64,000 nt of DNA from a virus (Duplodnaviria; Heunggongvirae; Uroviricota; Caudoviricetes), in the IMG/VR virus record IMGVR_UViG_2687453623_000004, one strand, 5' to 3'. Shown here in pieces: positions 3,750 to 38,522 of the stretch (position 1 is the stretch's first letter; every line of letters starts with the position of its first letter). Both the position numbers and the translations under genes were made by a program. The notes beneath the pieces are model-generated. The model worked only from the letters and a program-made list of their open reading frames with translations. It had not been told where the DNA came from and ran no database searches.

Positions 3750-4019
3750 TTACCACAAAGATTCCGGCCACACGACGCGACAGCCGTGCAGTTCGAAAAC
3801 GCCCTGACGGAAATATCCCCTGTGGTCATGTCCGGTATACAGATAACAGGCCTTTCCCTGCTCAAGCATGCGCATGCAATGCGCACTCCGGGAAACGCGG
3901 ATGACAGGTTTGTTACCCCTGATGGTGATGCTTTGTACATCCGTGTTCGTCGCCTTAAGCGCCATAATGGCTGACTGCACTTTGCTGATTTGCTGGTTGA
4001 TACCTGTGGTGGATTTCAT
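3750..4019 (-). CDS. Hypothetical early protein
   Basis: 89-aa ORF. Confidence 0.3.
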   Translation of the reverse strand: MKSTTGINQQISKVQSAIMALKATNTDVQSITIRGNKPVIRVSRSAHCMRMLEQGKACYLYTGHDHRGYFRQGVFELHGCRVVWPESLW

Positions 4020-4021
4020 TA

Positions 4022-5227
4022 TTAAACCCCTTTGACAACGTCAGCGTTGACCTGTGGAACCCCGATTTCAGCGGCCAGATTCATGGCGGCTATTACCAGG
4101 TTACTGACGGCCAGCGGATACAGCAGGCTGACCATATTTTTACGGTGACTTCCCGGATTGCTCAGGCGGGCACGTATGGCATCCACTGCACCGGCGTCCA
4201 TAATGTCCGTCAGCTGTTTACCGGCCCGTTGCAGTTTGAACGTCAGAAATTCTTCAAGGTTATTGTCCAGAGGCAGAAGTTCGACCACCTCACAGCGCTG
4301 AACGACTTCACGGACTTCCATATTGCGTTCAGACAGTTTTGTCGCCAGTTCCGGCTGGCCAATCAGCACGATGGACAGCAGTTTTTTGAAACCGGACTCC
4401 AGCTCAAAAAAGCGTTTGAGGTGTTTCAGTGTCGGAATGGGCAGACTGTGGGCCTCCTCAATCACCAGAACGTGGCTGAACCCCGCCTGGCTGCTGTCTT
4501 TCAGGACGCGATGCAACTGGCGAAAACGGGCGTCCTGACTGCGTCTGATGCTTTCCAGTGGTGCGATGGTACTGATAATGGCTTCGGCAATAGCTGCTGC
4601 CTTCAGGGTTTTCCCTTTCACATCGTTGTCTTCCATAGCGATGATGTATGGCTCGATAACAATTACCGGCGCATTCTCGCGGTTGATACGTTCAGTCAGG
4701 TCGCGGCGCAGCGTGGATTTACCCGCACCGGACTCACCGATGACGGCCATAAACCCACCATGACGGGCTGTCTGGTACAGCGCCTCACGCACGTAGCGAA
4801 TGTCCGGGGTGGTGAACACATCATCAGAACCCTGCATGGCTTCGTCGGCGAACGGGTCACGGAAAAGACCAAACGCTTTTTTGGTTGCTGGAAATAACAC
4901 CTGTTTTTTGAGTAACATATTCTCTTCCTCACTGAGGCTCGTTTTATCTGTGGTACCCGCTGTACGGGGCGTGGCCGCGCCCTGTACAGCATCAAAACTC
5001 TTCGTTGTATCAATCCCCTGACTTTCCAGCCAGGACGCAAGACGCCGGCGCACTTCTCCGGGGCTGGTGCGGGGCCACGCGTTATGATTCACAATCTGGG
5101 CCAGCGTGGCCTCAGAAACATCGACAGCTCTCGCCACCACCGCCTGTGGAATACGGGCCTCTTTCAGTTGCTGCTTCAGTACCAGCATGTTTCCCTCCTC
5201 AGTTGCCGTTAACAATGCTGATAACAC
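4022..5227 (-). CDS. Transposition helper ATPase (Mu B / TniB-like P-loop protein)
   Basis: Walker A GESGAGKST; directly downstream of and overlapping the transposase gene; true start may be an internal Met. Confidence 0.7.
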   Translation of the reverse strand: MLSALLTATEEGNMLVLKQQLKEARIPQAVVARAVDVSEATLAQIVNHNAWPRTSPGEVRRRLASWLESQGIDTTKSFDAVQGAATPRTAGTTDKTSLSEEENMLLKKQVLFPATKKAFGLFRDPFADEAMQGSDDVFTTPDIRYVREALYQTARHGGFMAVIGESGAGKSTLRRDLTERINRENAPVIVIEPYIIAMEDNDVKGKTLKAAAIAEAIISTIAPLESIRRSQDARFRQLHRVLKDSSQAGFSHVLVIEEAHSLPIPTLKHLKRFFELESGFKKLLSIVLIGQPELATKLSERNMEVREVVQRCEVVELLPLDNNLEEFLTFKLQRAGKQLTDIMDAGAVDAIRARLSNPGSHRKNMVSLLYPLAVSNLVIAAMNLAAEIGVPQVNADVVKGV

Positions 5228-8781: not shown

Positions 8782-8833
8782 CGTTGTCTCCTTTGTTGAT
8801 GCAATGATGTTTGCCTTATATGTGTTAGATTAT

Positions 8834-8851
8834 TGCTCATAATTATGAGCA
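8834..8851. promoter_or_regulatory. Putative operator: perfect 18-bp palindrome TGCTCATAATTATGAGCA in the ner / repressor divergent region
   Basis: Read directly; an extra TATGAGC half-site overlaps the repressor start codon around 8873-8879. Confidence 0.45.
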
Positions 8852-8874
8852 TATCAAGATAGAGATTCACTTTT

Positions 8875-9231
8875 ATGAGCAAAGATATAGGAGAGCGCGT
8901 TATTTCTGTGAGGAAGAAAGCAGGGTTGAACCAGAGAGAATTTGCAGCTCGTTTAGGTATTTCTAATGGTGGTATCAGTCAGATTGAAAATGGAAAGGCG
9001 ATGCCTGGAGGGGAGTTTCTGTTAAAGATGCATCAAGAGTTTAATGTTGATGTAAATTGGTTGCTCACTGGAATGAGCACAGATGGTATGACTAGAAACC
9101 AGAATCAAATTTCCCCAGAAAAACAAAAACTAATAGATACTTTTGACGACATGACACCAGACCAACAACGCTCATTTCTTGAGATTGGGCGATTCTATAC
9201 TCAGCCAAAACCAGGAAAAATCGCAGGCTGA
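8875..9231 (+). CDS. XRE-family HTH repressor (c-repressor analogue)
   Basis: 118 aa; N-terminal LNQREFAARLGISNGGISQIENGK HTH; divergent from ner. Confidence 0.7.
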   Translation: MSKDIGERVISVRKKAGLNQREFAARLGISNGGISQIENGKAMPGGEFLLKMHQEFNVDVNWLLTGMSTDGMTRNQNQISPEKQKLIDTFDDMTPDQQRSFLEIGRFYTQPKPGKIAG

Positions 9232-9317
9232 TACTGACCCGGACACAAAGGACAGGTGGTTGATCTGGATGCTTTCAGAAAACATCGCCAGTGACATAGT
9301 GGAAGTTGTTTGGTTTA

Positions 9318-9345
9318 CCGGAAAGCATTGTGCTTTCCGGTTTTG
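9318..9345 (+). terminator. Rho-independent terminator after the repressor gene
   Basis: CCGGAAAGC-ATTGT-GCTTTCCGG perfect 9-bp stem followed by TTTTGTTT. Confidence 0.5.
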
Positions 9346-9347
9346 TT

Positions 9348-10112
9348 TCAGAAGTTGCAGATTAGCAGTTCACGGCGCGGCGTGGGTTTACCCGCCAGAC
9401 TGTAGTTGATATTCACTGTCTGTATGTTCAGTCCAGTGAACACCTCGCGCATCTGCGGGATGTCGTTCACCGAAATTATCATTTTTCCTCTGATGCACCG
9501 GGCCAGCTCTGCCAGCCGCGAGTAGTTCCCTTCAGGAAAATCCACACCATAGCCTTCCGTACCCAGGTACGGTGGGTCGCAGTAGAACAGCGTGTGCGGA
9601 CGATCATAACGCTCAATGCACTGTTGCCAGTCCATGTGTTCTATGACTGTTCTGGAAAGCCGCAGGTGTGCCGCTGACAGTTCTTCTTCAATACGTAGCA
9701 GGTTGAAGCGTGGCGGGGATGTGGTGGAGGTACCGAAGCTGTGCTCTGCCACCTTGCCGCCAAACGCCTGCTTCTGAAGGTAGTAGAACCGTGCCGCACG
9801 CTGGATATCCGTCAGTGTTTCTTCCGGGGTGATCTGCAGCCATTTGTAGATCTGACGGCTGACCAGCGCCCATTTGAACTGGCGGACAAATTCTTCCAGG
9901 TGATGCTTTACCACCCGGTACAGATTCACCAGTTCACCGTTGATATCATTGATGACTTCGATCTTGCCGGGTGTCTTAAGAAAATAGAGCGCTGCTGCCC
10001 CACAAAACGGCTCCACATAACATTCATGCGCCGGAAACAGCGGCAGAATGTGTTTTGCAAGGCGGCGTTTGCCACCAATCCACGGCACGATGGGTAATGT
10101 CTGCATTTTCAT
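9348..10112 (-). CDS. dam: Orphan DNA adenine methyltransferase (Dam family)
   Basis: N-terminus MKMQTLPIVPWIGGKRRLAKHILPLF and DPPY motif; start taken at an internal Met of the 284-aa track ORF; no adjacent restriction enzyme. Confidence 0.75.
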   Translation of the reverse strand: MKMQTLPIVPWIGGKRRLAKHILPLFPAHECYVEPFCGAAALYFLKTPGKIEVINDINGELVNLYRVVKHHLEEFVRQFKWALVSRQIYKWLQITPEETLTDIQRAARFYYLQKQAFGGKVAEHSFGTSTTSPPRFNLLRIEEELSAAHLRLSRTVIEHMDWQQCIERYDRPHTLFYCDPPYLGTEGYGVDFPEGNYSRLAELARCIRGKMIISVNDIPQMREVFTGLNIQTVNINYSLAGKPTPRRELLICNF

Positions 10113-10302
10113 AATCTGCAAGCCTTTTACAATTATTAAAAAATATGGCAGTCTGGTCAGGTCTCGCGAGACTGACTGAACCTTGGTCGGCTCACAGCGC
10201 ATTCCTGTGGGGCGATGACCAGCCCGGCTTTCGGGTGCCGGGCTGGTCGTTCTTTCATGATGCGGCAGGGATGGCGGGATTTCTGTTAATGTGGTTTAGG
10301 GA

Positions 10303-10518
10303 TTATCCGGGGCGATTTTCTGACCTTATCCGGTCCAGGGCATAAGTAATACCTTCTGCAAAAACAGAAGTATCAAACTGCTTTTGTATTCCCTGAAAAT
10401 GAAAAGCGGCACGACAGACACTCAGTTCTCCGCGGTATAACCGGATAATATCTTCCAGAACATTGTTCACTGCTTCAGCACGGCGCTGATGTTCTGTTAA
10501 CGTTAATCGGGGATTCAT
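10303..10518 (-). CDS. Hypothetical small protein
   Basis: 71-aa ORF co-oriented with dam. Confidence 0.3.
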   Translation of the reverse strand: MNPRLTLTEHQRRAEAVNNVLEDIIRLYRGELSVCRAAFHFQGIQKQFDTSVFAEGITYALDRIRSENRPG

Positions 10519-10921
10519 GATGCACTCCTTAAATGATGATTTTTATGTACTCACCGGCAAAATATTCTGCCGATTACTGAACACGCATCCGGCACCTCAG
10601 GTTTTGATTTATTCTGGTTTTTTCGATATCCCGGACCAGGTTGATCACGACCAGAAAAAGTGCCGGTGTTTTATTGATACGCTGATATGGCTTCGGGATA
10701 ACAGCTATATTCGTTACTCTCAGTTGCTGGCTGTGGGAGCGGCTGATGTCGTCCTCACGGAAAAAACGCTCTGTCTGCTCAATGCCATGCCGACCTTTCT
10801 GCAGCCCCGGCCCGTACCATTTAAAGAGTCACTTCTGGATGCAGTAAAAACCGGTGAAAATGCAGTCATCGCTGAATGCGTATCCCGGATTATGCGTTAC
10901 GTGTTTAATGAACGTAAGTGA
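10517..10921 (+). CDS. Hypothetical protein on the opposite strand within the accessory block
   Basis: 134-aa ORF filling the gap between two minus-strand genes; weak ribosome-binding site; could be spurious. Confidence 0.25.
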   Translation: MMHSLNDDFYVLTGKIFCRLLNTHPAPQVLIYSGFFDIPDQVDHDQKKCRCFIDTLIWLRDNSYIRYSQLLAVGAADVVLTEKTLCLLNAMPTFLQPRPVPFKESLLDAVKTGENAVIAECVSRIMRYVFNERK

Positions 10922-11625
10922 GGTTTATCCGCTGTCTGCATAATCCCGATAGCCAGTGCGAGGGGAAGTAATTCCGGGGAAACTCTTTCAAACAGCGATG
11001 CCCATTCTCCTCTCGCCATCACTCTGTCCAGCCCGCCCTCCAGTTGCATTTCAGCAATCTTCCTGATTTCCCGGAACAACGCCGCTTTGATCTCTTCATG
11101 CTCAGCTTTATTTTCCGGTGTCAGAAGGTATTCGTCGAAGAACCGGGGAGGCTGGTTAATCGGGATGTGTTCCTGTTTGCCGTACTTCGGGGACGAACAA
11201 CATTCTGTTGACTGACCAGTGAGTTTACGTAACTCCTTCATGAGCAGCTCCTGATCGTAAACTGTCATCAGTGCCGCAATGGTGGCATGCAGTGCATCGG
11301 GCAGTATCCAGGGTTGCCGGCCCGTGGGGCATATAACATCCAGCAGCTCATTCGTCCGACAGATACGCTCCTCGCCGTATGACAACAGGCCCTGTCCCGT
11401 GTATTCCTCCAGCCTGATCACTGTGCCAGCCCGTGGTTTCTGCCATGTGCTCAGATCATCCCCACTCATACGGCGCTCACCGTCCACGTCTGCGGCGTCG
11501 ACAATGACGCTGTTTCCGAATTCCTGTTTCACCACTTCCTCTATTCGCGCCAGTACGTAACTTTTACCGCTGCCCACAGGACCGGACACGGTGACAGTGA
11601 TGACCGGATTCAGTGTCTGCGTCAT
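10897..11625 (-). CDS. P-loop NTPase of unknown function
   Basis: 242 aa; Walker A GPVGSGKSY near the N-terminus; first gene of a leftward accessory block. Confidence 0.45.
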   Translation of the reverse strand: MTQTLNPVITVTVSGPVGSGKSYVLARIEEVVKQEFGNSVIVDAADVDGERRMSGDDLSTWQKPRAGTVIRLEEYTGQGLLSYGEERICRTNELLDVICPTGRQPWILPDALHATIAALMTVYDQELLMKELRKLTGQSTECCSSPKYGKQEHIPINQPPRFFDEYLLTPENKAEHEEIKAALFREIRKIAEMQLEGGLDRVMARGEWASLFERVSPELLPLALAIGIMQTADKPHLRSLNT

Positions 11626-11755
11626 ATCGTATTCTCCTCTGTGAATAATTCATCGTTTATCCTGCACATCCCGTATCCCCGGCTCTCTTAACGCGCTTTA
11701 AAATCCTTCGCGCCCTGTATTTGTGATGCTGTCTCCACCAGATAAGGAGACACAC

Positions 11756-12106
11756 ATGAAAAACCTGAAAAAATTCATTCCCCCTGTTAAAAAACCTCGC
11801 CTCAGCGGCTGGCTGCTGACCTCAGTGCTGTTGCTGGGCACCATCGCTCTGGTCTCACCACAGCAGCTGCCTGTTGTGATCTACAAGCTGGCACTCATCA
11901 CGCTGGCAGCAGTGCTGGGTTACTGGCTTGACCGTTCGCTCTTCCCCAAAGCCCGTCCCGGTCAGTACCTGAAACATGACGACAGGCTGATGGCTGAAGG
12001 GCGTTTCCCGGTACAGACCGGCCTTCACCTGGTGTTTTCTGCTGCGTTAATCCGCCGTGCACTGATTGTTGCAGCGGTCTGCCTGGCTGTTGCGATGGGG
12101 CTTTAA
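11756..12106 (+). CDS. Putative holin (three predicted membrane helices)
   Basis: Start at ATG 11756 preceded by AAGGAGA; immediately upstream of the endolysin. Confidence 0.45.
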   Translation: MKNLKKFIPPVKKPRLSGWLLTSVLLLGTIALVSPQQLPVVIYKLALITLAAVLGYWLDRSLFPKARPGQYLKHDDRLMAEGRFPVQTGLHLVFSAALIRRALIVAAVCLAVAMGL

Positions 12107-12108
12107 TC

Positions 12109-12849
12109 ATGAACTGGCCGCAGATCACCTGGATTGTATGCATGTCCCTGAAACTGGCTTTCGAAGCCTTTCGGGTCTTCATCAGAACCGAACGCCTGTC
12201 AGTCCGCGCCGGGACCTTTCTGGTTCATATGGCATGGGTATTCTTTGTCGCAATGTTGCTCTGGTGTGGCGGCTTTTTCAGCCAGGCATGCGCAGCACAA
12301 CCTCCGCAGGCTGCGCTGCAGTATCGCGATGATGTGATCCGTAATGCCCGGCTTGAATGGGGACTGTCTGCGCCGGTGGCCGATTTCGCCGCGCAACTGC
12401 ATCAGGAAAGCGGCTGGCGACCTGATGCGATCTCGCCGGCTGGCGCTCAGGGACTGGCGCAGTTCATGCCTGCCACTGCCGACTGGATAAGCCAGTTGAT
12501 ACCGATGCTGAGCAGTCGTGAGCCGTTTAATCCGGCATGGGCTATCCGGGCGCTGGTCAGCTATGACCGCTGGCTGTGGCAGCGTGTCAGCGCCGCCAGT
12601 GACTGCGAGCGTATGGCCATGACACTGTCGGGCTATAACGGTGGTCTGGGCTGGGTACAACGGGACAGGCGGCTTGCATCACAGAAAGGTCTGGACAGCA
12701 CCCGCTGGTTCGGACATGTCGCCACGGTGAATGCCGGACGCAATGCGGCCAGCTGGCGGGAGAACCGCCATTATCCGCAGCGCATCCTGCGCGAACTGGC
12801 ACCGCGATATCTCACATGGGGAGGCAGCAGTTGTGTGGCATCTGGTTAA
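12109..12849 (+). CDS. Endolysin, lytic transglycosylase (SLT domain) with N-terminal signal/anchor-like segment
   Basis: AQLHQESGW ... GAQGLAQFMPATA motifs; hydrophobic N-terminal region ending SQACAAQ. Confidence 0.7.
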   Translation: MNWPQITWIVCMSLKLAFEAFRVFIRTERLSVRAGTFLVHMAWVFFVAMLLWCGGFFSQACAAQPPQAALQYRDDVIRNARLEWGLSAPVADFAAQLHQESGWRPDAISPAGAQGLAQFMPATADWISQLIPMLSSREPFNPAWAIRALVSYDRWLWQRVSAASDCERMAMTLSGYNGGLGWVQRDRRLASQKGLDSTRWFGHVATVNAGRNAASWRENRHYPQRILRELAPRYLTWGGSSCVASG

Positions 12850-33484: not shown

Positions 33485-34734
33485 TTATGGGAAACCTGAA
33501 TGAAACAGAAAAGTGGGAAGAAAATATCTATCAACTGGAGACATCAGATCCGGTTCTGGGTGGTGCAGACGGGATATCAAATCGAGCCCCCCGGCAACTG
33601 GCAAACAGGACGAAATGGCTGAAGAAGAAAACGGAGGAAGCCGCACAGTCACTGGCTGAACACGTACGTTCCCGTAACCACCCGGACGCGACACTGACAG
33701 CTAAGGGGTTCACCCAACTGAGCAGTGCCACCAACAGCACCTCTGAAACGCTGGCCGCCACACCAAAAGCGGTCAAGGCTGCATACGACCTGGCAGCCGG
33801 CAAGGCGCCTGCCAGCCACACTCACCCGTGGAGTCAGATAACGGGAGTGCCTGCGGCTTCACTGACGGCAAAAGGCACCGTACAACTGAGCAGCGCCACG
33901 GACAGTCAATCAGAAACTGAGGCTGCCACGCCGAAGGCGGTCAAGGCTGCATACGACCTTGCAGCCGGCAAGGCGCCCGTCAGCCACACTCACCCGTGGA
34001 GTCAGATAACGGGAGTGCCTGCTGCCTCGCTGACGGCAAAAGGCACCGTACAATTGAGCAGTGCCATCAACAGCACGTCTGAAATACTGGCCGCCACACC
34101 GAAAGCGGTCAAGGCTGCATACGATCTGGCAAACGGAAAACAACCGGCAGATGCCACGCTCACTGCTCTGGCAGGACTTGCCACTGCAGCAGATCGGTTG
34201 CCTTATTTTACCGGAGCAGACCGCGCAGAGCTGGCAACCCTTACAGCTATTGGTCGCGCTATTATCGCTAAGGGCAGTATAAAAGATGTCCTCAATTACC
34301 TTGGTTTGGGGGAAGGCTCGGCGCTGCCCGTTGGTGTACCTGTTCCGTGGCCCACTGCCACACCGCCAGCAGGCTGGTTAAAGTGCGACGGGCGCGCCTT
34401 TACAAAAGAACAATATCCTGTTCTGGCCAGAGTCTACCCGACCCTCCGTCTTCCCGATTTACGCGGTGAGTTTATCCGTGGATGGGACGACGGGCGAAAA
34501 GTGGATACAGGGCGCGATCTGCTTTCACGGCAGGATGGTACAAGTTTTTCTCATTACGCAGGTAATTTTGACATTGGGTCTGGTCATTCAATCAATAACT
34601 ATGACCAAATCGTTGACAACCAACCTGGATTCTCCCGTTTTTCATTTGCAGGTCCTTCGCGAGGCGATGGGGTTAATTATGTGACCATTCGTCCCCGTAA
34701 CATTGCGTTTAATTACATCGTAAGGGCGGCATAG
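33481..34734 (+). CDS. Tail fibre protein S (constant part plus currently expressed C-terminal cassette Sv1)
   Basis: 417 aa; repeated TAKGxxQLSSAxxSxSE...[16 protein letters not shown] units; C-terminus ...[14 protein letters not shown]. Confidence 0.75.
   Translation: MIMGNLNETEKWEENIYQLETSDPVLGGADGISNRAPRQLANRTKWLKKKTEEAAQSLAEHVRSRNHPDATLTAKGFTQLSSATNSTSETLAATPKAVKAAYDLAAGKAPASHTHPWSQITGVPAASLTAKGTVQLSSATDSQSETEAATPKAVKAAYDLAAGKAPVSHTHPWSQITGVPAASLTAKGTVQLSSAINSTSEILAATPKAVKAAYDLANGKQPADATLTALAGLATAADRLPYFTGADRAELATLTAIGRAIIAKGSIKDVLNYLGLGEGSALPVGVPVPWPTATPPAGWLKCDGRAFTKEQYPVLARVYPTLRLPDLRGEFIRGWDDGRKVDTGRDLLSRQDGTSFSHYAGNFDIGSGHSINNYDQIVDNQPGFSRFSFAGPSRGDGVNYVTIRPRNIAFNYIVRAA
34289..34314 (+). 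promoter_or_regulatory. Putative Gin/Hin-type crossover site A inside S
   Basis: TCCTCAATTACC-TT-GGTTTGGGGGAA resembles hix/gix half-sites (ACC-TT-GGTTT core); begins a ~210-bp segment repeated at 34740 and, inverted, at 36130-36346. Confidence 0.45.
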
Positions 34735-34753
34735 AAACGTTGGTTTGGGGGAA
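34730..34753 (+). promoter_or_regulatory. Putative crossover site B (direct) immediately after the S stop codon
   Basis: CATAGAAACG-TT-GGTTTGGGGGAA. Confidence 0.4.
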
Positions 34754-35206
34754 GGCTCTGCATTGCCTGTTGGTGTACCGGTTCCATGGCCCACCGCCAC
34801 ACCGCCAGCAGGCTGGTTACAGTGCAACGGAGCTACGTTCACCAAAGAACAATATCCTGTTCTGGTCAGAGTCTACCCGACCCTCCGTCTTCCCGATTTG
34901 CGCGGTGAGTTTATCCGTGGATGGGACGGTGGTCGCAAGGTTGATACCGGGCGTGCGCTACTTTCATTTCAGGAAGGGACTATCGTATCCGGTTTTGATG
35001 ATAATGATACCGGAGATATCAGTTCGCTCGGCTCTACACAATACGGATTTGGTGACGCTTTAACCTCTAATCAACTGGGGGTCTTAAATGGCAAAAAGTG
35101 GATATTTGATGCATCCTCTAAAGGTGCACAAAGATATGACTGGTGGGCTTATGTATCAGCTCGCCCCCGCAATATCGCATTTAACTATATCGTGAGGGCG
35201 GCGTGA
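34745..35206 (+). other. Silent alternative tail-fibre C-terminal cassette (Sv2), no upstream constant region in frame
   Basis: Homologous to the S C-terminal region (PVGVPVPWPTATPPAGWL ... [14 protein letters not shown]) but diverged in the middle; lacks an independent start context. Confidence 0.5.
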
Positions 35207-35212
35207 TACCGT

Positions 35213-35827
35213 TCAGCCGGCAAGCGCCAGTGGCGCTTCCGGCCAGCTGATTTCAGGTGCCTTGCTGATATCCAGTGCGTTCAGCTCGTCGATATAATCC
35301 AGCACGGCGTTCAGTTTTGCCGTTTCTTCTGGTTTCAGACTGCGACCAGCACGCAGTTTGAGGTTGATAAGATCGACGGACGCCATCGCCTGTTTCACCC
35401 GTTGCTGGCGTTGCTGTCTGGCAACCTCCAGTTCTGCGGCTCGCTGCCGTTCAGTATCGGTTACCCACGCCTCACCGTTCCAGGTATCCCATGGCGTGGC
35501 TGGCTGTTTTGTGGTGGTGTCCGCCGGGTAATCACCCGGTTGGGTAATCAGAACGGGGTTACCGTTCTCCGTGCTGTATACCGTCTCGCCGCGGTGATCA
35601 GGCACATGCTCCCACCCGTTCAGCGTGGCAGTCCGGCAAACCACGTAACCCGAAATTGCTTCCGGCGGTGCATCGGCGCACGAATGTGCCGGAGTACCCA
35701 CCCCAAGGGCGAGATACTCCACAGAGGATGAGGTGTATTCCCGGGTTTCCTCGTCATAGTGATATACAGTGATATCGCCCGCTACAGTGGCGATACCGTT
35801 TTCATCCAGAACTGCAGTGTTACTCAT
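35213..35827 (-). CDS. Tail fibre assembly protein (U'-like), inverted orientation
   Basis: 204 aa; C-terminus ...ISWPEAPLALAG typical of Tfa family. Confidence 0.6.
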   Translation of the reverse strand: MSNTAVLDENGIATVAGDITVYHYDEETREYTSSSVEYLALGVGTPAHSCADAPPEAISGYVVCRTATLNGWEHVPDHRGETVYSTENGNPVLITQPGDYPADTTTKQPATPWDTWNGEAWVTDTERQRAAELEVARQQRQQRVKQAMASVDLINLKLRAGRSLKPEETAKLNAVLDYIDELNALDISKAPEISWPEAPLALAG

Positions 35828-36309
35828 TAAACTGCCCTCACAATGTAATTAAGTGCAATGCTACGGGGTCTGACAGTGATACCCTTCGCATACCCGCTTC
35901 TGATAGAGGTCAGAATAGTAGCCTGCATACCATTGTCTGACATTGCCACGACAGGATCGCTGAATGTTGTCCCGTCCGGCATTTTAAAGCTGCCCTCACG
36001 AAGGTCTGTAATGGAATCTTCATTGTTGAATCCCATGCCGACTATCCCCGAGGTTCCCGTAGTGTCCTGGTTATAATAATCCAGCATTGCTGTTCTTAAC
36101 AGCGTTGCCCCTTGTGCGGACAGCAACTTACGTCCTGTATCAACTTTGCGCCCGTCGTCCCATCCACGGATAAACTCACCGCGTAAATCGGGAAGACGGA
36201 GGGTCGGGTAGACTCTGGCCAGAACAGGATATTGTTCTTTTGTAAAGGCGCGCCCGTCGCACTTTAACCAGCCTGCTGGCGGTGTGGCGGTGGGCCACGG
36301 AACAGGCAC
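35827..36309 (-). other. Inverted alternative tail-fibre C-terminal cassette (Sv3)
   Basis: Begins PVPWPTATPPAGWLKCDGRAF..., ends ...RPRSIALNYIVRAV; its 5' ~210 bp is almost identical to S at 34301-34512 in inverted orientation. Confidence 0.6.
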
Positions 36310-36320
36310 ACCAACGGGTA

Positions 36321-36346
36321 GCGCCGAGCCTTCTCCTAAACCAACG
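36321..36346 (-). promoter_or_regulatory. Putative crossover site C (inverted)
   Basis: Reverse complement GATAAACG-TT-GGTTTAGGAGAA. Confidence 0.4.
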
Positions 36347-36407
36347 TTTATCTCTCAAATCCTCCCCACATTATCTCAGTACTTTAACCACTCAAAAGGG
36401 AGTATTT

Positions 36408-36983
36408 TTAATGCTGATTGGCTACATACGTGTGTCAACAAATGACCAAAACACAGATTTGCAACGCAATGCATTAATGTGCGCAGGATGTGAACAGATT
36501 TTTGAGGACAAAATGAGCGGAACCAAGTCGGAACGACCAGGCCTGAAACGCGCTTTAAAGTGCCTTAAAAGAGGGGATACATTGGTGGTCTGGAAGCTGG
36601 ATCGGTTGGGTAGAAGAATGAAACACCTCATTGCTCTCACAGAAGAGCTACGCGCAAAAGGTGTCAATTTTCGCAGTCTGACGGATTCAATCGATACCAG
36701 CACTCCGATGGGAAGGTTCTTTTTTCATATGATGGGTGCACTGGCAGAAATGGAGCGTGAACTGATAGTTGAGCGCACGCTGGCTGGACTGGCTGCTGCG
36801 CGAGCACAAGGAAGAGTTGGAGGACGTCGCCCGAAACTGACGAAGGAGCAGCATGAGCAGATCGCAAGATTGCTCCAGAAAGGGTATGACAGAAAGCGGC
36901 TGGCAATTATCTATGATATTGGACTGTCAACGATCTACCGCTATCACCCTGTTGGGACTGTCATAACGCAACCTGAAATGTAA
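36408..36983 (+). CDS. gin: Serine DNA invertase (Gin/Hin/Pin family)
   Basis: MLIGYIRVSTNDQNTDLQ ... catalytic Ser motif and C-terminal HTH; start at internal Met of the track ORF. Confidence 0.85.
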   Translation, partial: LMLIGYIRVSTNDQNTDLQRNALMCAGCEQIFEDKMSGTKSERPGLKRALKCLKRGDTLVVWKLDRLGRRMKHLIALTEELRAKGVNFRSLTDSIDTSTPMGRFFFHMMGALAEMERELIVERTLAGLAAARAQGRVGGRRPKLTKEQHEQIARLLQKGYDRKRLAIIYDIGLSTIYRYHPVGTVITQPEM

Positions 36984-37238: not shown

Positions 37239-38522
37239 TCAGCCGGGTTGACTTATCCGCGCCAATTGCTCGAAATAGTCTGGAAAAGTTTTAGCGGTAC
37301 ATTTTGGATCAAGAATCGTCACAGGCGTATCTGATAATGCGACCAGCGAGAAACACATCGCCATCCGGTGATCATTATAAGTGGCGATCTCAGCAAATTT
37401 CAGTTTTTCCGGTGGCGTAATGCGAATGAAATCATGCCCCTCTTCGACTTCCGCACCGACTTTACGCAGTTCTGTTGCCATCGCAAACAGGCGATCGGTC
37501 TCTTTAACACGCCAGTTATAGATATTGCGCAGCGTGGTGGTGCCTTTTGCAAATAACGCCGCGGTGGCAATGGTCATCGCCGCATCGGGAATATGGTTCA
37601 TATCCATATCAATGGCGTTCAGTTCACCACGCGTGCAGGAAATATAATCATCGCCCCAGCAAATGGTCGCGCCCATTTTTTCCAGAACATCAGCAAAGCG
37701 AATATCACCCTGCATACTGTTGCGTCCAATGCCGGTCACTTTTACAGTGCCGCCTCTGATTGCTGCTGCTGCCAGGAAATAAGAAGCCGAAGATGCATCG
37801 CCTTCAACCAAATAAGTGCCCGGAGACTGGTAAGACTGCCCCCCTTTTACGACAAATTGTTGATAGTGCTGATTTTCAATTTCAACACCAAACGTCTTCA
37901 TCAGATTGAGGGTGATATCGATATAAGGTTTAGAAACCAGATCGCCTTTAATACGAATCACCGTATCTTCCGGCGCAAGAGGCGCAGTCATTAACAGTGC
38001 GGTGAGGAACTGGCTGGAAACGGAGCCATCAACATCAACGTTGCCGCCAGTAAAGCCGCCCTGTAAACGCAATGGCGGATAATTTTCTTGTTCCAGGTAA
38101 GTGATCTTCGCCCCGCCCTGGCGCAGCGCATCCACCAGATGACCAATCGGGCGTTCTTTCATTCGCGGTTCACCGCTCAGTACAATATCATTGCTACCCA
38201 GGCAAAGTGCTGCCGCCAGCGGACGCATTGCCGTTCCGGCGTTACCGAGGAACAACTCCCGGGCACTTTCTGCGTGTAATGGACCACCGTTACCGATAAT
38301 TTCGCAACGCGTACGATCGGCTGAAAGCGTATAGCTTACCCCTAACGCTGTTAATGCATTCAGCATATGGCGCACGTCATCGCTATCCAGCAGATTGGTT
38401 AATACTGTTTTGCCGTGTGCTAATGCCGCCAGCAATAAAGCGCGGTTAGAAACGCTCTTGGAACCGGGCAGATTAATAGTGCCATCGACACGAGCGATGG
38501 GTTGTAACGTTAGGGATTCCAT
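37239..38522 (-). CDS. aroA: 3-phosphoshikimate 1-carboxyvinyltransferase (EPSP synthase)
   Basis: 427 aa, near-identical to E. coli AroA as I remember it. Confidence 0.95.

Follow-up and report, generated by a model that had tools for sequence, protein, structure and literature searches.

The switches of phages P2 and 186 consist of divergent small regulator genes with overlapping transcripts. In their face-to-face promoter arrangements (C-Cox and CI-Apl), two small proteins, one of them of the winged-helix type, are encoded divergently and the transcripts overlap in antisense. Also relevant to what follows are natural P-loop NTPases, in which the core is built on five strands and takes up at least about 150 residues. 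The P2 old/tin locus holds known defence genes as a variable cargo (Rousset et al. 2022, PMC9122126). Finally, an orphan type II methylase of prophage Phi2, M.EcoMIV (EC958_1101), was termed a Dam homologue by Forde et al. 2015 (PMC4659465). According to that study, it is transcribed at a very low level in the lysogen (its RT-PCR signal, which comes from one growth condition only, is far below that of dam) and no methylation motif was attributed to it in the SMRT data for EC958.

The locus compared here with these systems is a block at positions 9348-11625 of a 64,000-nucleotide stretch of viral DNA (the window). It contains the genes for a methylase, for a 71-aa protein ('small'), for a 134-aa protein (D) and for a 242-aa protein with a Walker A motif (P). 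The methylase is M.EcoMIV itself, the same gene without any sequence difference; it is already known and adds little. The three-gene cassette formed by D, 'small' and the C-terminal domain of P is uncharacterised, and a literature search found the accessions and PHROG identifiers of its proteins in no paper. The main feature of the block, missed in a previous sequence-only reading, is a head-to-head overlap of the start codons of D and 'small' which is conserved across two unrelated phage families. The pair resembles C-Cox and CI-Apl in comprising two small divergent proteins, one of them winged-helix, whose transcripts would have to overlap in antisense; it differs in that the two coding regions meet at a single CATG and no operator region separates them, in that D is acidic, and in that searches gave no sequence similarity to Cox or Apl. 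The P2 old/tin locus also has homologues of D and 'small' among its known defence genes. However, they are constant there while the cargo varies and they lack a recognised defence domain, and the pair of the window is located in another phage family and in another slot.

The prophage and its accessory slot

The window carries a BcepMu-like prophage that is 100% identical to phage PhiKM. It corresponds to prophage Phi2 of the ST131 strain EC958, since the window contains the two invertase crossover sites of Phi2 at a distance of 2,067 bp from each other. The EC958 copy of the block is 99.8-100% identical, and of 5,426 complete E. coli genomes 583 (EC958 among them) have the block. The four ORFs proposed for the block in the sequence-only reading are all real, each at the position given for it, and its view of the block as accessory was borne out as well: the repressor-to-holin interval is filled by other genes in relatives (gp18-20 in BcepMu, DUF2441 in KP12 and membrane proteins in Eco889). 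The region is mosaic among these relatives.

On the left side, the block is bordered by a c-type HTH repressor gene (8875..9231, plus strand, 118 aa; PF01381 HTH_3, 4.6e-15; phrog_8/phrog_4 repressor families). This gene is annotated by RefSeq in EC958 and is absent from the annotation of the PhiKM record. A terminator-like hairpin of 11 pairs followed by TTTTGTTT (9317..9341, plus strand; consensus scan and the sequence itself) sits between it and the 3' end of the methylase gene. A second hairpin, GC-rich and of 12 bp (GACCAGCCCGGC / GCCGGGCTGGTC, then GTTCTTTC on the plus strand; 10217..10248, read from the sequence), is found within the 190-nt spacer that goes from the 71-aa gene to the methylase gene. 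The sequence flanking this second hairpin is also kept upstream of the methylase in KP12, Ec1117 and Serratia, as judged from a spurious ORF (MKERPARC...) shared by all three. On the right side, a divergent intergenic region of 130 nt (11626..11755, from the ORF layout) separates P from the holin gene (11756..12106, plus strand; PF13272, 1.5e-41). A scan for consensus sigma-70 promoters gave no consistent or convincing one in the P-holin spacer or inside the D/small pair.

The proteins encoded in the slot

The methylase ORF (9348..10202, minus strand) has 284 codons. Its start is most likely M31, because the family profiles begin there and because RefSeq and relatives annotate proteins of 254-256 aa; the gene so defined (9348..10112, minus strand) codes for a 254-aa orphan D12-class (alpha) N6-adenine DNA methyltransferase. 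The protein scores 101.4 bits against PF02086 (cut-off 22, E = 8.7e-29) and 116.6 bits against TIGR00571 (cut-off 114.85), and it matches the PADLOC model MTase_II with an E-value of 9.4e-112. E. coli Dam and M.DpnII (PDB 2g1p and 2dpm) belong to the same fold family (phmmer E = 5.5e-14 and 6.5e-17), with the same motif order and matching catalytic motifs: the DPPY motif (FYCDPPYLG) and the FxGxG SAM-binding motif (EPFCGAAALYF) are intact and align to their counterparts in DpnIIA and EcoDam. The designation 'Dam' used in the sequence-only reading holds as regards the D12 class and the catalytic motifs; GATC specificity is not supported. The EcoDam residues contacting GATC (K9, L122, R124 and P134) are replaced by P, K, A and S in the phmmer alignment to 2g1p; where GATC-specific alpha-class enzymes have an NGL(C/Y)R recognition hairpin, the window methylase has FGGKVA, besides the proline at the K9 position; and the Dam equivalog model NF008152 reaches 67 bits for a cut-off of 441. 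As had been noted, no cognate restriction gene adjoins the methylase gene, its neighbours being the HTH repressor gene and the 71-aa gene, which have no nuclease domain. M.EcoGII was considered as a relative and rejected, since it is a beta-class enzyme.

D is encoded on the plus strand (10517..10921; phrog_2266, 2.6e-44). The 134-aa 'antisense' ORF of the sequence-only reading thus exists but is not antisense noise, given the phrog_2266 match, a 53%-identical homologue in Serratia and a large family (191 clusters at 50% identity). The predicted structure (AF2; pLDDT 90.8 with a 116-sequence alignment, as against 52.6 with a 4-sequence one) has an H1-strand-H3-beta-hairpin wing topology, with two C-terminal helices. 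D is a genuine gene and, judging from this model, its product has a winged-helix fold. Searches for a more precise assignment were negative: none of 77 family members matches a Pfam HTH family, there is no Pfam model for the family itself, and Foldseek against PDB and BFVD returned nothing below E = 0.02. The family profile weakly matches YjcQ, AspA and MarR over the recognition-helix/wing segment 'LTeKGL', with PDB E-values of 0.28 or worse. DNA binding by D is doubtful because the family is acidic (pI below 6 in 86% of members) and has no conserved basic recognition helix, K83 being the sole conserved charged residue. Assignment of D to the MarR/PadR-type DNA-binding regulators was rejected, as there is no family profile match and no basic reading surface (median pI 5.1). 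The label 'DUF2513' carried by the Serratia homologue was also discarded: the model gave no hit at E <= 1 with the Serratia, window or Midge proteins and none at E <= 0.01 among the 77 family members, and a literature search on DUF2513 was also empty. D is dispensable, since some copies that are intact in other respects (Ec1117 and locus L026) have a frameshift in the 134-aa gene.

The opposite strand codes for 'small' (10303..10518, minus strand), a helical protein of 71 aa that matches phrog_4490 (7.2e-53) and has a 31%-identical homologue in Serratia. Since this ORF and the 242-aa one match phrog_4490 and phrog_3787, respectively, both recur in other phage genomes.

P (10897..11625, minus strand; phrog_3787) is a modular protein. 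Alignments delineate an N-terminal Walker-A mini-domain (residues 1 to about 75), a variable middle part and a C-terminal domain of about 70 aa. The Walker A motif GPVGSGKS (GxxGxGKS; residues 15-22) is invariant among P homologues, and a candidate Walker B motif of the hhhhD type (VIVDAAD) follows helix 1; conservation is limited to about 75 aa. The previous label of 'P-loop NTPase' is accurate in so far as a Walker A motif is present; however, only this segment of about 75 aa supports it, as compared with the core of about 150 residues or more of natural P-loop NTPases. All hits in Pfam and NCBIfam are below cut-off and confined to the P-loop segment, PDB profile hits do not exceed about 50 residues, and the P-loop hits in PADLOC are weak (E = 0.003 or worse). 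The N-domain profile matches the beta1-P-loop-alpha1 element (about 40 residues) of ABC, PilT and AAA ATPases (PDB 6c2u and 9jix) and nothing beyond it; minimal 'phosphate-loop' proteins are the other close comparison. P is not a known kinase or housekeeping factor.

The two ends of P behave differently. The N-domain is 54-58% identical in the L077 and L099 loci, as against only 33% for D. The L093 and L099-L102 loci lack both D and 'small' and have the P N-domain gene next to the holin gene, as the first one that diverges from it; in L099, L101 and L102 the methylase gene is located downstream of the P N-domain gene on the same strand, with different genes or none between. The C-domain co-occurs with D and 'small', and an 89-aa protein of Serratia is made of this domain alone. 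Other size variants of P are a 182-aa form without residues 52-124 and a 68-aa homologue. There is a weak similarity between 'small' and the P C-domain (hhalign 51%, E = 1.5e-4), and hhalign did not link the P2-type 'small' to the neighbouring small ORF clusters 20, 26 and 14.

The start-codon overlap of D and 'small'

D and 'small' are on opposite strands and their start codons overlap by 2 nt, the two ATGs being read from a single CATG tetranucleotide. Each gene contains the translation signal of the other: an AAGGAG ribosome-binding site for 'small' is found within codons 4-6 of D, and a GGGGA site for D within codons 2-4 of 'small' (both read from the sequence). The 2-nt overlap is kept in all of the 56 loci compared, a set made up of P2-like phages and of the E. 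coli and Serratia types of BcepMu-like prophage, and also in the L077-type BcepMu-like prophage, which was retrieved separately. Over the loci that keep it, identity between the D proteins goes down to about 30%. At the other end, the 3' end of D overlaps that of the 242-aa gene by 25 nt, and an overlap with the third gene is retained elsewhere (37 and 4 nt). In the P2-like set, synonymous variation is reduced in codons 1-16 and 37-52 of D, which fits with the existence of an embedded signal for the opposite strand. The head-to-head layout is specific to the enterobacterial phage subfamily, as distant D homologues are either solitary or co-directional with their neighbour.

In the leftward unit, the untranslated spacer is occupied exactly by D. 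Together with the shared CATG and the embedded ribosome-binding sites, this means that any transcript capable of expressing 'small' and the methylase from upstream would have to be fully antisense to D; the shared CATG and the embedded sites also imply that any transcript of D has a 5' leader that is antisense to 'small'.

Among P2-like phages, about 45 loci have homologues of D and 'small' inside the gpA-gpQ defence hotspot, where the PADLOC-recognised defence genes found next to them include a retron, Fic, HEC-06, AriA-like and NsnA. In these phages 'small' without exception shares its strand with replication gene A, D being encoded on the other one. The pair is constant when the adjacent cargo is variable, a behaviour that suits a framework or regulatory function at least as well as one in defence.

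Expression and possible roles of the cassette

Our preferred reading, to which we give a probability of about 0.4, is that the accessory slot combines a leftward backbone, from P to the methylase gene, with an inserted antisense-coupled cassette (P C-domain, D and 'small') whose expression would be of the either-or type. The backbone, which has the repressor gene on one side and the lysis/late operon on the other in this BcepMu-like transposable prophage (EC958 Phi2 / PhiKM type), would be a leftward unit starting beside the holin gene with the small Walker-A gene P and ending, in many relatives, with an orphan D12 adenine methyltransferase gene, here that of M.EcoMIV. This enzyme, silent in the lysogen, would most plausibly be produced in the lytic cycle, phage DNA being its substrate. 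The cassette may be a mobile element set between P and the methylase gene, contributing 'small', D (encoded on the other strand) and a C-terminal domain that has become fused to P. D would be expressed in one state and P, 'small' and the methylase in the other; 'small', and perhaps the P C-domain as its possible paralogue, would bind D as a partner or act as its antagonist. The data establish that the genes are real, the fold, the geometry and its conservation, the location in the hotspot and the silence of the methylase in lysogens; we infer that the leftward genes are transcribed together, that expression is coupled in antisense and that the proteins are partners, as well as any part played in defence or anti-defence. 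The leftward transcription and the anti-defence or host-modulation role suggested in the sequence-only reading have the same putative status. Several observations speak against our reading: no convincing sigma-70 promoter was found in the P-holin spacer or inside the pair, D is frameshifted in some copies, the pair stays constant amid variable cargo in P2-like phages, the D family is acidic, the head-to-head layout is confined to the enterobacterial phage subfamily, and the low RT-PCR signal of M.EcoMIV comes from a single growth condition.

Could the tight packing simply reflect the compaction of phage genomes, the genes being unrelated recombination leftovers that act independently? Short gene overlaps are frequent in compact phage genomes, the region is mosaic, and in L093 and L099-L102 P is found but neither D nor 'small'. 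We nevertheless regard this as very unlikely: the CATG overlap is retained in 56/56 loci and in L077 despite the low identity and the change of phage family, the ribosome-binding sites are reciprocally placed within the codons of the partner, and the P C-domain accompanies the pair. A toxin-antitoxin-like addiction module stabilising the prophage or the hotspot cargo is, in our opinion, highly doubtful too. The genes are divergent with overlapping starts instead of co-directional as in type II modules, and domain searches detected no known toxin or antitoxin domain, even though the cassette comprises small proteins (63-147 aa) that move jointly between phage families and the antisense overlap recalls the RNA-based control of type I/III-like toxins. 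The loss of one partner by frameshift while the other is kept also recalls such modules, but it is the larger partner, the winged-helix protein, that carries the frameshift, and cells tolerate its loss.

Two other readings give the pair a more specific role. It could be, with P in Mu-like phages, an anti-phage exclusion or abortive-infection system of the prophage comparable to old/tin and composed of an effector and an inhibitor. The presence of the pair beside defence genes in the gpA-gpQ hotspot is suggestive of this, as are the lipoprotein or membrane 'moron' genes that occupy the BcepMu-like slot in relatives and the fact that the cassette is non-essential and variably present among close relatives. 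Nevertheless, none of the PADLOC 2.0 models matches D or 'small', the ATPase hits of P are sub-threshold, the domain searches revealed no enzymatic or membrane domain in D or 'small', and the pair is invariant amid variable cargo. Moreover, its peptides are absent from the systems cloned and tabulated by Rousset et al. 2022 (PMC9122126), so that a three-gene 'hypothetical protein' system validated there against P1 was rejected as a match. We consider this proposal rather unlikely. The same applies, with a similar degree of doubt, to a local switch like C/Cox or CI/Apl controlling the methylase or the hotspot cargo, in which D would be a winged-helix transcription factor and 'small' an anti-repressor or co-regulator. 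Its design would be that of the P2/186 switches (divergent small regulators, overlapping transcripts), the pair remains constant while the neighbouring cargo changes, and the profile of D has weak matches to YjcQ, AspA and MarR in the recognition-helix/wing segment. On the other hand, the acidity of the family, the conservation of a single charged residue, the negative Pfam results, a Foldseek search with no match better than E = 0.03 and the fact that no repeated operator-like sequence was identified all argue against it.

Our preferred reading, that of a backbone with an antisense-coupled cassette, can be extended into a toggle, previously undescribed and common to P2-like and Mu-like phages. 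D would be a winged-helix effector or sensor belonging to the lysogenic state; whenever the lytic transcription of the phage itself passes through the obligatory start overlap, D would be silenced as RNA, while 'small' and the C-domain would neutralise it as protein, a self-immunity design for prophage exclusion or anti-defence; this extension is speculative and we think it distinctly unlikely.

Among complete E. coli genomes, about one in nine has the block, the pandemic ST131 lineage included, and a related pair lies in the middle of P2 gpA-gpQ, the prophage defence hotspot that has been studied best. The N-domain of P is a natural Walker-A mini-domain of about 70 aa, which bears on ideas about minimal P-loop proteins. 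If the CATG layout does enforce either-or expression, it would offer prophages a compact and transferable means of separating lysogenic from lytic functions, and it would provide a handle on three protein families that are without annotation.

The source prophage and its accessory interval

Positions 8800-12200 of the window match Escherichia phage PhiKM (genus Bcepmuvirus) at 100% identity. For Phi2, a prophage of the ST131 strain EC958, two 26-bp invertase crossover sites and a segment length of 2,067 bp have been published; both sites were found in the window (34289-34314 and 36331-36356) at exactly that spacing, and the prophage is therefore of the Phi2 or PhiKM type. Since the half-sites are exchanged, the invertible segment is opposite in orientation to that of the EC958 reference. 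This segment (34289-36356) belongs to the tail-fibre gene, and within it lie a tail-fibre assembly gene and the coding sequence for an alternative C-terminus (Collar domain) of the tail fibre; the serine invertase gene (36282-36983, + strand) lies just outside it. Other landmarks are a Mor-family activator gene (180-569, − strand) and, immediately beyond the right end of the prophage, the host aroA gene (EPSP synthase; 37239-38522, − strand), so that in this strain the Mu-like prophage is inserted beside the serC-aroA region. The PhiKM GenBank record leaves the HTH repressor gene (8875-9231, + strand) unannotated, while RefSeq genomes annotate it; a 41-aa reverse-strand ORF (9172-9297), overlapping the repressor 3' end and probably spurious, is given instead.

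The block between the repressor and holin genes (9348-11625) contains a methylase ORF (284 aa; 9348..10202, −), a 71-aa gene ('small'; 10303..10518, −), a 134-aa gene (D; 10517..10921, +) and a 242-aa gene (P; 10897..11625, −) with the motif GPVGSGKS at residues 15-22, all four being where the sequence-only reading had placed them. The last three match PHROG families without assigned function (phrog_4490, phrog_2266 and phrog_3787, respectively; E 7e-53 to 5e-170), hence none of them is a chance ORF, and all four ORFs are genuine genes. Of 5,426 complete E. coli genomes, 583 carry the 1.5-kb core of the block, EC958 among them, and every copy is chromosomal. That the block is accessory, as had been proposed, was borne out by relatives, whose repressor-to-holin interval holds other genes: gp18-gp20, all on the + strand, in BcepMu; a lipoprotein gene, the methylase and a DUF2441 gene in Klebsiella phage KP12; two membrane proteins and a P truncated to 158 aa in E. 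coli Eco889; and further gene contents elsewhere. In sister prophages (retrieved loci L003, 3293-4951; L002, 4361-4894; L077, 3000-3677) the repressor is followed by same-strand lipoprotein or membrane-protein genes, among them the gene of a DUF7424 lipoprotein and that of a lipoprotein of 177 aa which is related to the C-terminal end of a membrane protein of 328 aa. Genes of this sort are typically suspected of roles in lysogenic conversion or superinfection exclusion. The window prophage has no such gene after its repressor, and a terminator-like hairpin lies directly behind the repressor gene.

Head-to-head geometry of D and 'small'

'small' and D lie in divergent orientation, and a CATG tetranucleotide (10516-10519) is common to both start codons; the GGGGA ribosome-binding site of D lies inside codons 2-4 of 'small', and the AAGGAG site of 'small' inside codons 4-6 of D. 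The 3' ends of D and P overlap by 25 nt. On the opposite strand, D thus occupies exactly the 378 nt that are left untranslated from P to 'small'. The same layout was found in Serratia BcepMu-like prophages (genes of 73, 139 and 89 aa; D 53% identical) and in a third BcepMu-like lineage, L077 (69, 147 and 258 aa; D 33% identical). In the P2-like Midge, ST147-VIM1phi7.1 and FSL SP-004, a 63-64-aa gene (phrog_2454) is head-to-head with a 143-aa D (~31% identical to that of the window). In scans of viral and genome collections, 56 loci with a D homologue could be scored, and every one has the 2-nt start overlap. Variation among the 'small' proteins follows a protein-like pattern. The head-to-head and tail-overlap geometry is conserved across two phage families. 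The head-to-head layout is absent from distant D homologues (L073, L075, L076 and L078), so it defines an enterobacterial phage subfamily and not the whole D family.

In P2-like phages the pair is located in the interval from portal gene Q to replication gene A (gpA-gpQ), which is the cos-proximal defence hotspot described by Rousset et al. (PMC9122126); the tables of systems cloned in that study contain none of the pair's peptides. The pair is constant, with 'small' always on the gene A strand and D on the portal/terminase strand, and the cargo on both sides is variable, matching PADLOC models for retron RT type VI, Fic/PDC-S04, PDC-M48B, HEC-06/Orf5, AriA-like ATPases and NsnA. The cassette of D, 'small' and the P C-domain sits in accessory or defence slots. 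In P2-like D genes (L029-L072) synonymous variation is lowered in codons 1-16 and 37-52 (minimum 0.06 vs a mean of 0.35), the dip in codons 37-52 being sharp and amino-acid variation there not low. Signals serving the opposite strand may lie in these segments; consensus scans found only a weak promoter-like match there and nothing convincing.

The encoded proteins

The D family comprises 191 clusters at 50% identity (E <= 1e-3), every member being about 125-170 aa long, and none of 77 members had a Pfam match at E <= 0.01. Structure modelling gives D a winged-helix fold, and its family is unannotated. Members are acidic (median pI 5.1, 86% of members below pI 6; median 4.7 in P2-like D proteins) and K83 is the only well-conserved charged residue of the family, so DNA binding is possible but not indicated. 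A 'DUF2513' label on a Serratia homologue was not reproduced.

Alignments divide P into an N-terminal domain of ~75 residues (strand / P-loop / helix / strand / loop / strand), a variable middle, deleted in a 182-aa variant, and ~70 C-terminal residues, which alone make up the 89-aa Serratia protein. The N-domain is 54-58% identical between lineages whose D is only 33% identical. In the relatives L093 and L099-L102, with or without D and 'small', the first gene in divergent orientation to holin is that of the N-domain, and in L099, L101 and L102 it is followed downstream by the methylase on the same strand. Among the lineages examined, the C-domain occurs together with D and 'small', except in the BcepMu-like L100: there, without D, a 311-aa P (3929-4864, + strand) carries C-domain-like and 'small'-like segments in tandem, and it looks as if either D had been deleted and its flanking genes fused or an ancestral state preserved. 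'small' and the P C-domain may be paralogues, on evidence that is only suggestive (hhalign probability 51%, E 1.5e-4; BLAST against a tiny database, E 4e-4 to 5e-3).

Profile matches of the N-domain are confined to the ~40-residue P-loop element of ABC, PilT and AAA proteins and to designed 'phosphate-loop' proteins, and every Pfam match was below cut-off. A 68-aa homologue on a high-GC phage contig (L103, 2340-2546, + strand; also L104-L106) comprises little beyond the Walker A mini-domain (MITVTVSGPVGVGKS...), which suggests that natural P-loop proteins of very small size form a broader family in phages. P therefore does not belong to any known kinase or housekeeping enzyme. Of its earlier description as a P-loop NTPase, the Walker A motif stands and membership of a named P-loop family does not; P is at most a putative NTPase.

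The methylase almost certainly begins at M31 (9348..10112, 254 aa), where family profiles begin; RefSeq and relatives annotate it at 254-256 aa. It matches PF02086 (8.7e-29) and, narrowly over cut-off, TIGR00571, with motifs DPPY and FxGxG intact, which assigns it to the D12-class (alpha) N6-adenine methyltransferases. Because the prophage is Phi2, the enzyme is M.EcoMIV (EC958_1101), described by Forde et al. (PMC4659465) as a D12 orphan enzyme on Phi2; they could assign no SMRT motif to it, the recognition site was known for no homologue, and in LB cultures at mid-log phase its transcription was far below that of dam. As regards the methylase, the finding was already on record: it is M.EcoMIV, silent in the lysogen as judged from those cultures. 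M.EcoGII, considered as a relative, was rejected as an unrelated beta-class enzyme. The enzyme had been called a Dam-family orphan. Its orphan status holds, no nuclease gene being found among the block neighbours, but 'Dam' as a GATC-specific name is unsupported since the contact residues K9, L122, R124 and P134 of E. coli Dam align with P, K, A and S, and FGGKVA replaces the NGLxR hairpin common to Dam and M.DpnII. The 190-nt spacer upstream of the gene contains a perfect 12-bp GC-rich hairpin (10217-10248), followed by a T-rich run on the + strand only, which might terminate transcription running antisense to the methylase or might stabilise RNA; the sequence around it seems to accompany this gene in prophages of Klebsiella and Serratia and in other prophages of E. 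coli.

A possible antisense-coupled cassette

The earlier observation is confirmed, and its interpretation is partly supported. We propose that P, 'small' and the methylase would be on one leftward transcript, necessarily antisense to D, so that expression would alternate between D and the leftward genes, and that 'small' and the P C-domain would be protein partners of D. This composite explanation is tentative, with a probability of roughly 0.4; candidate roles for the cassette are exclusion, anti-defence or a local regulatory switch. Several points speak against a strong claim. No clear promoters for the cassette were found in consensus scans, D is frameshifted in some copies, and the constancy of the pair in P2-like phages suits a framework gene no less than a defence gene. 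As a form of prophage accessory gene organisation the cassette is an undescribed variant, and its architecture is unusual and strongly conserved.
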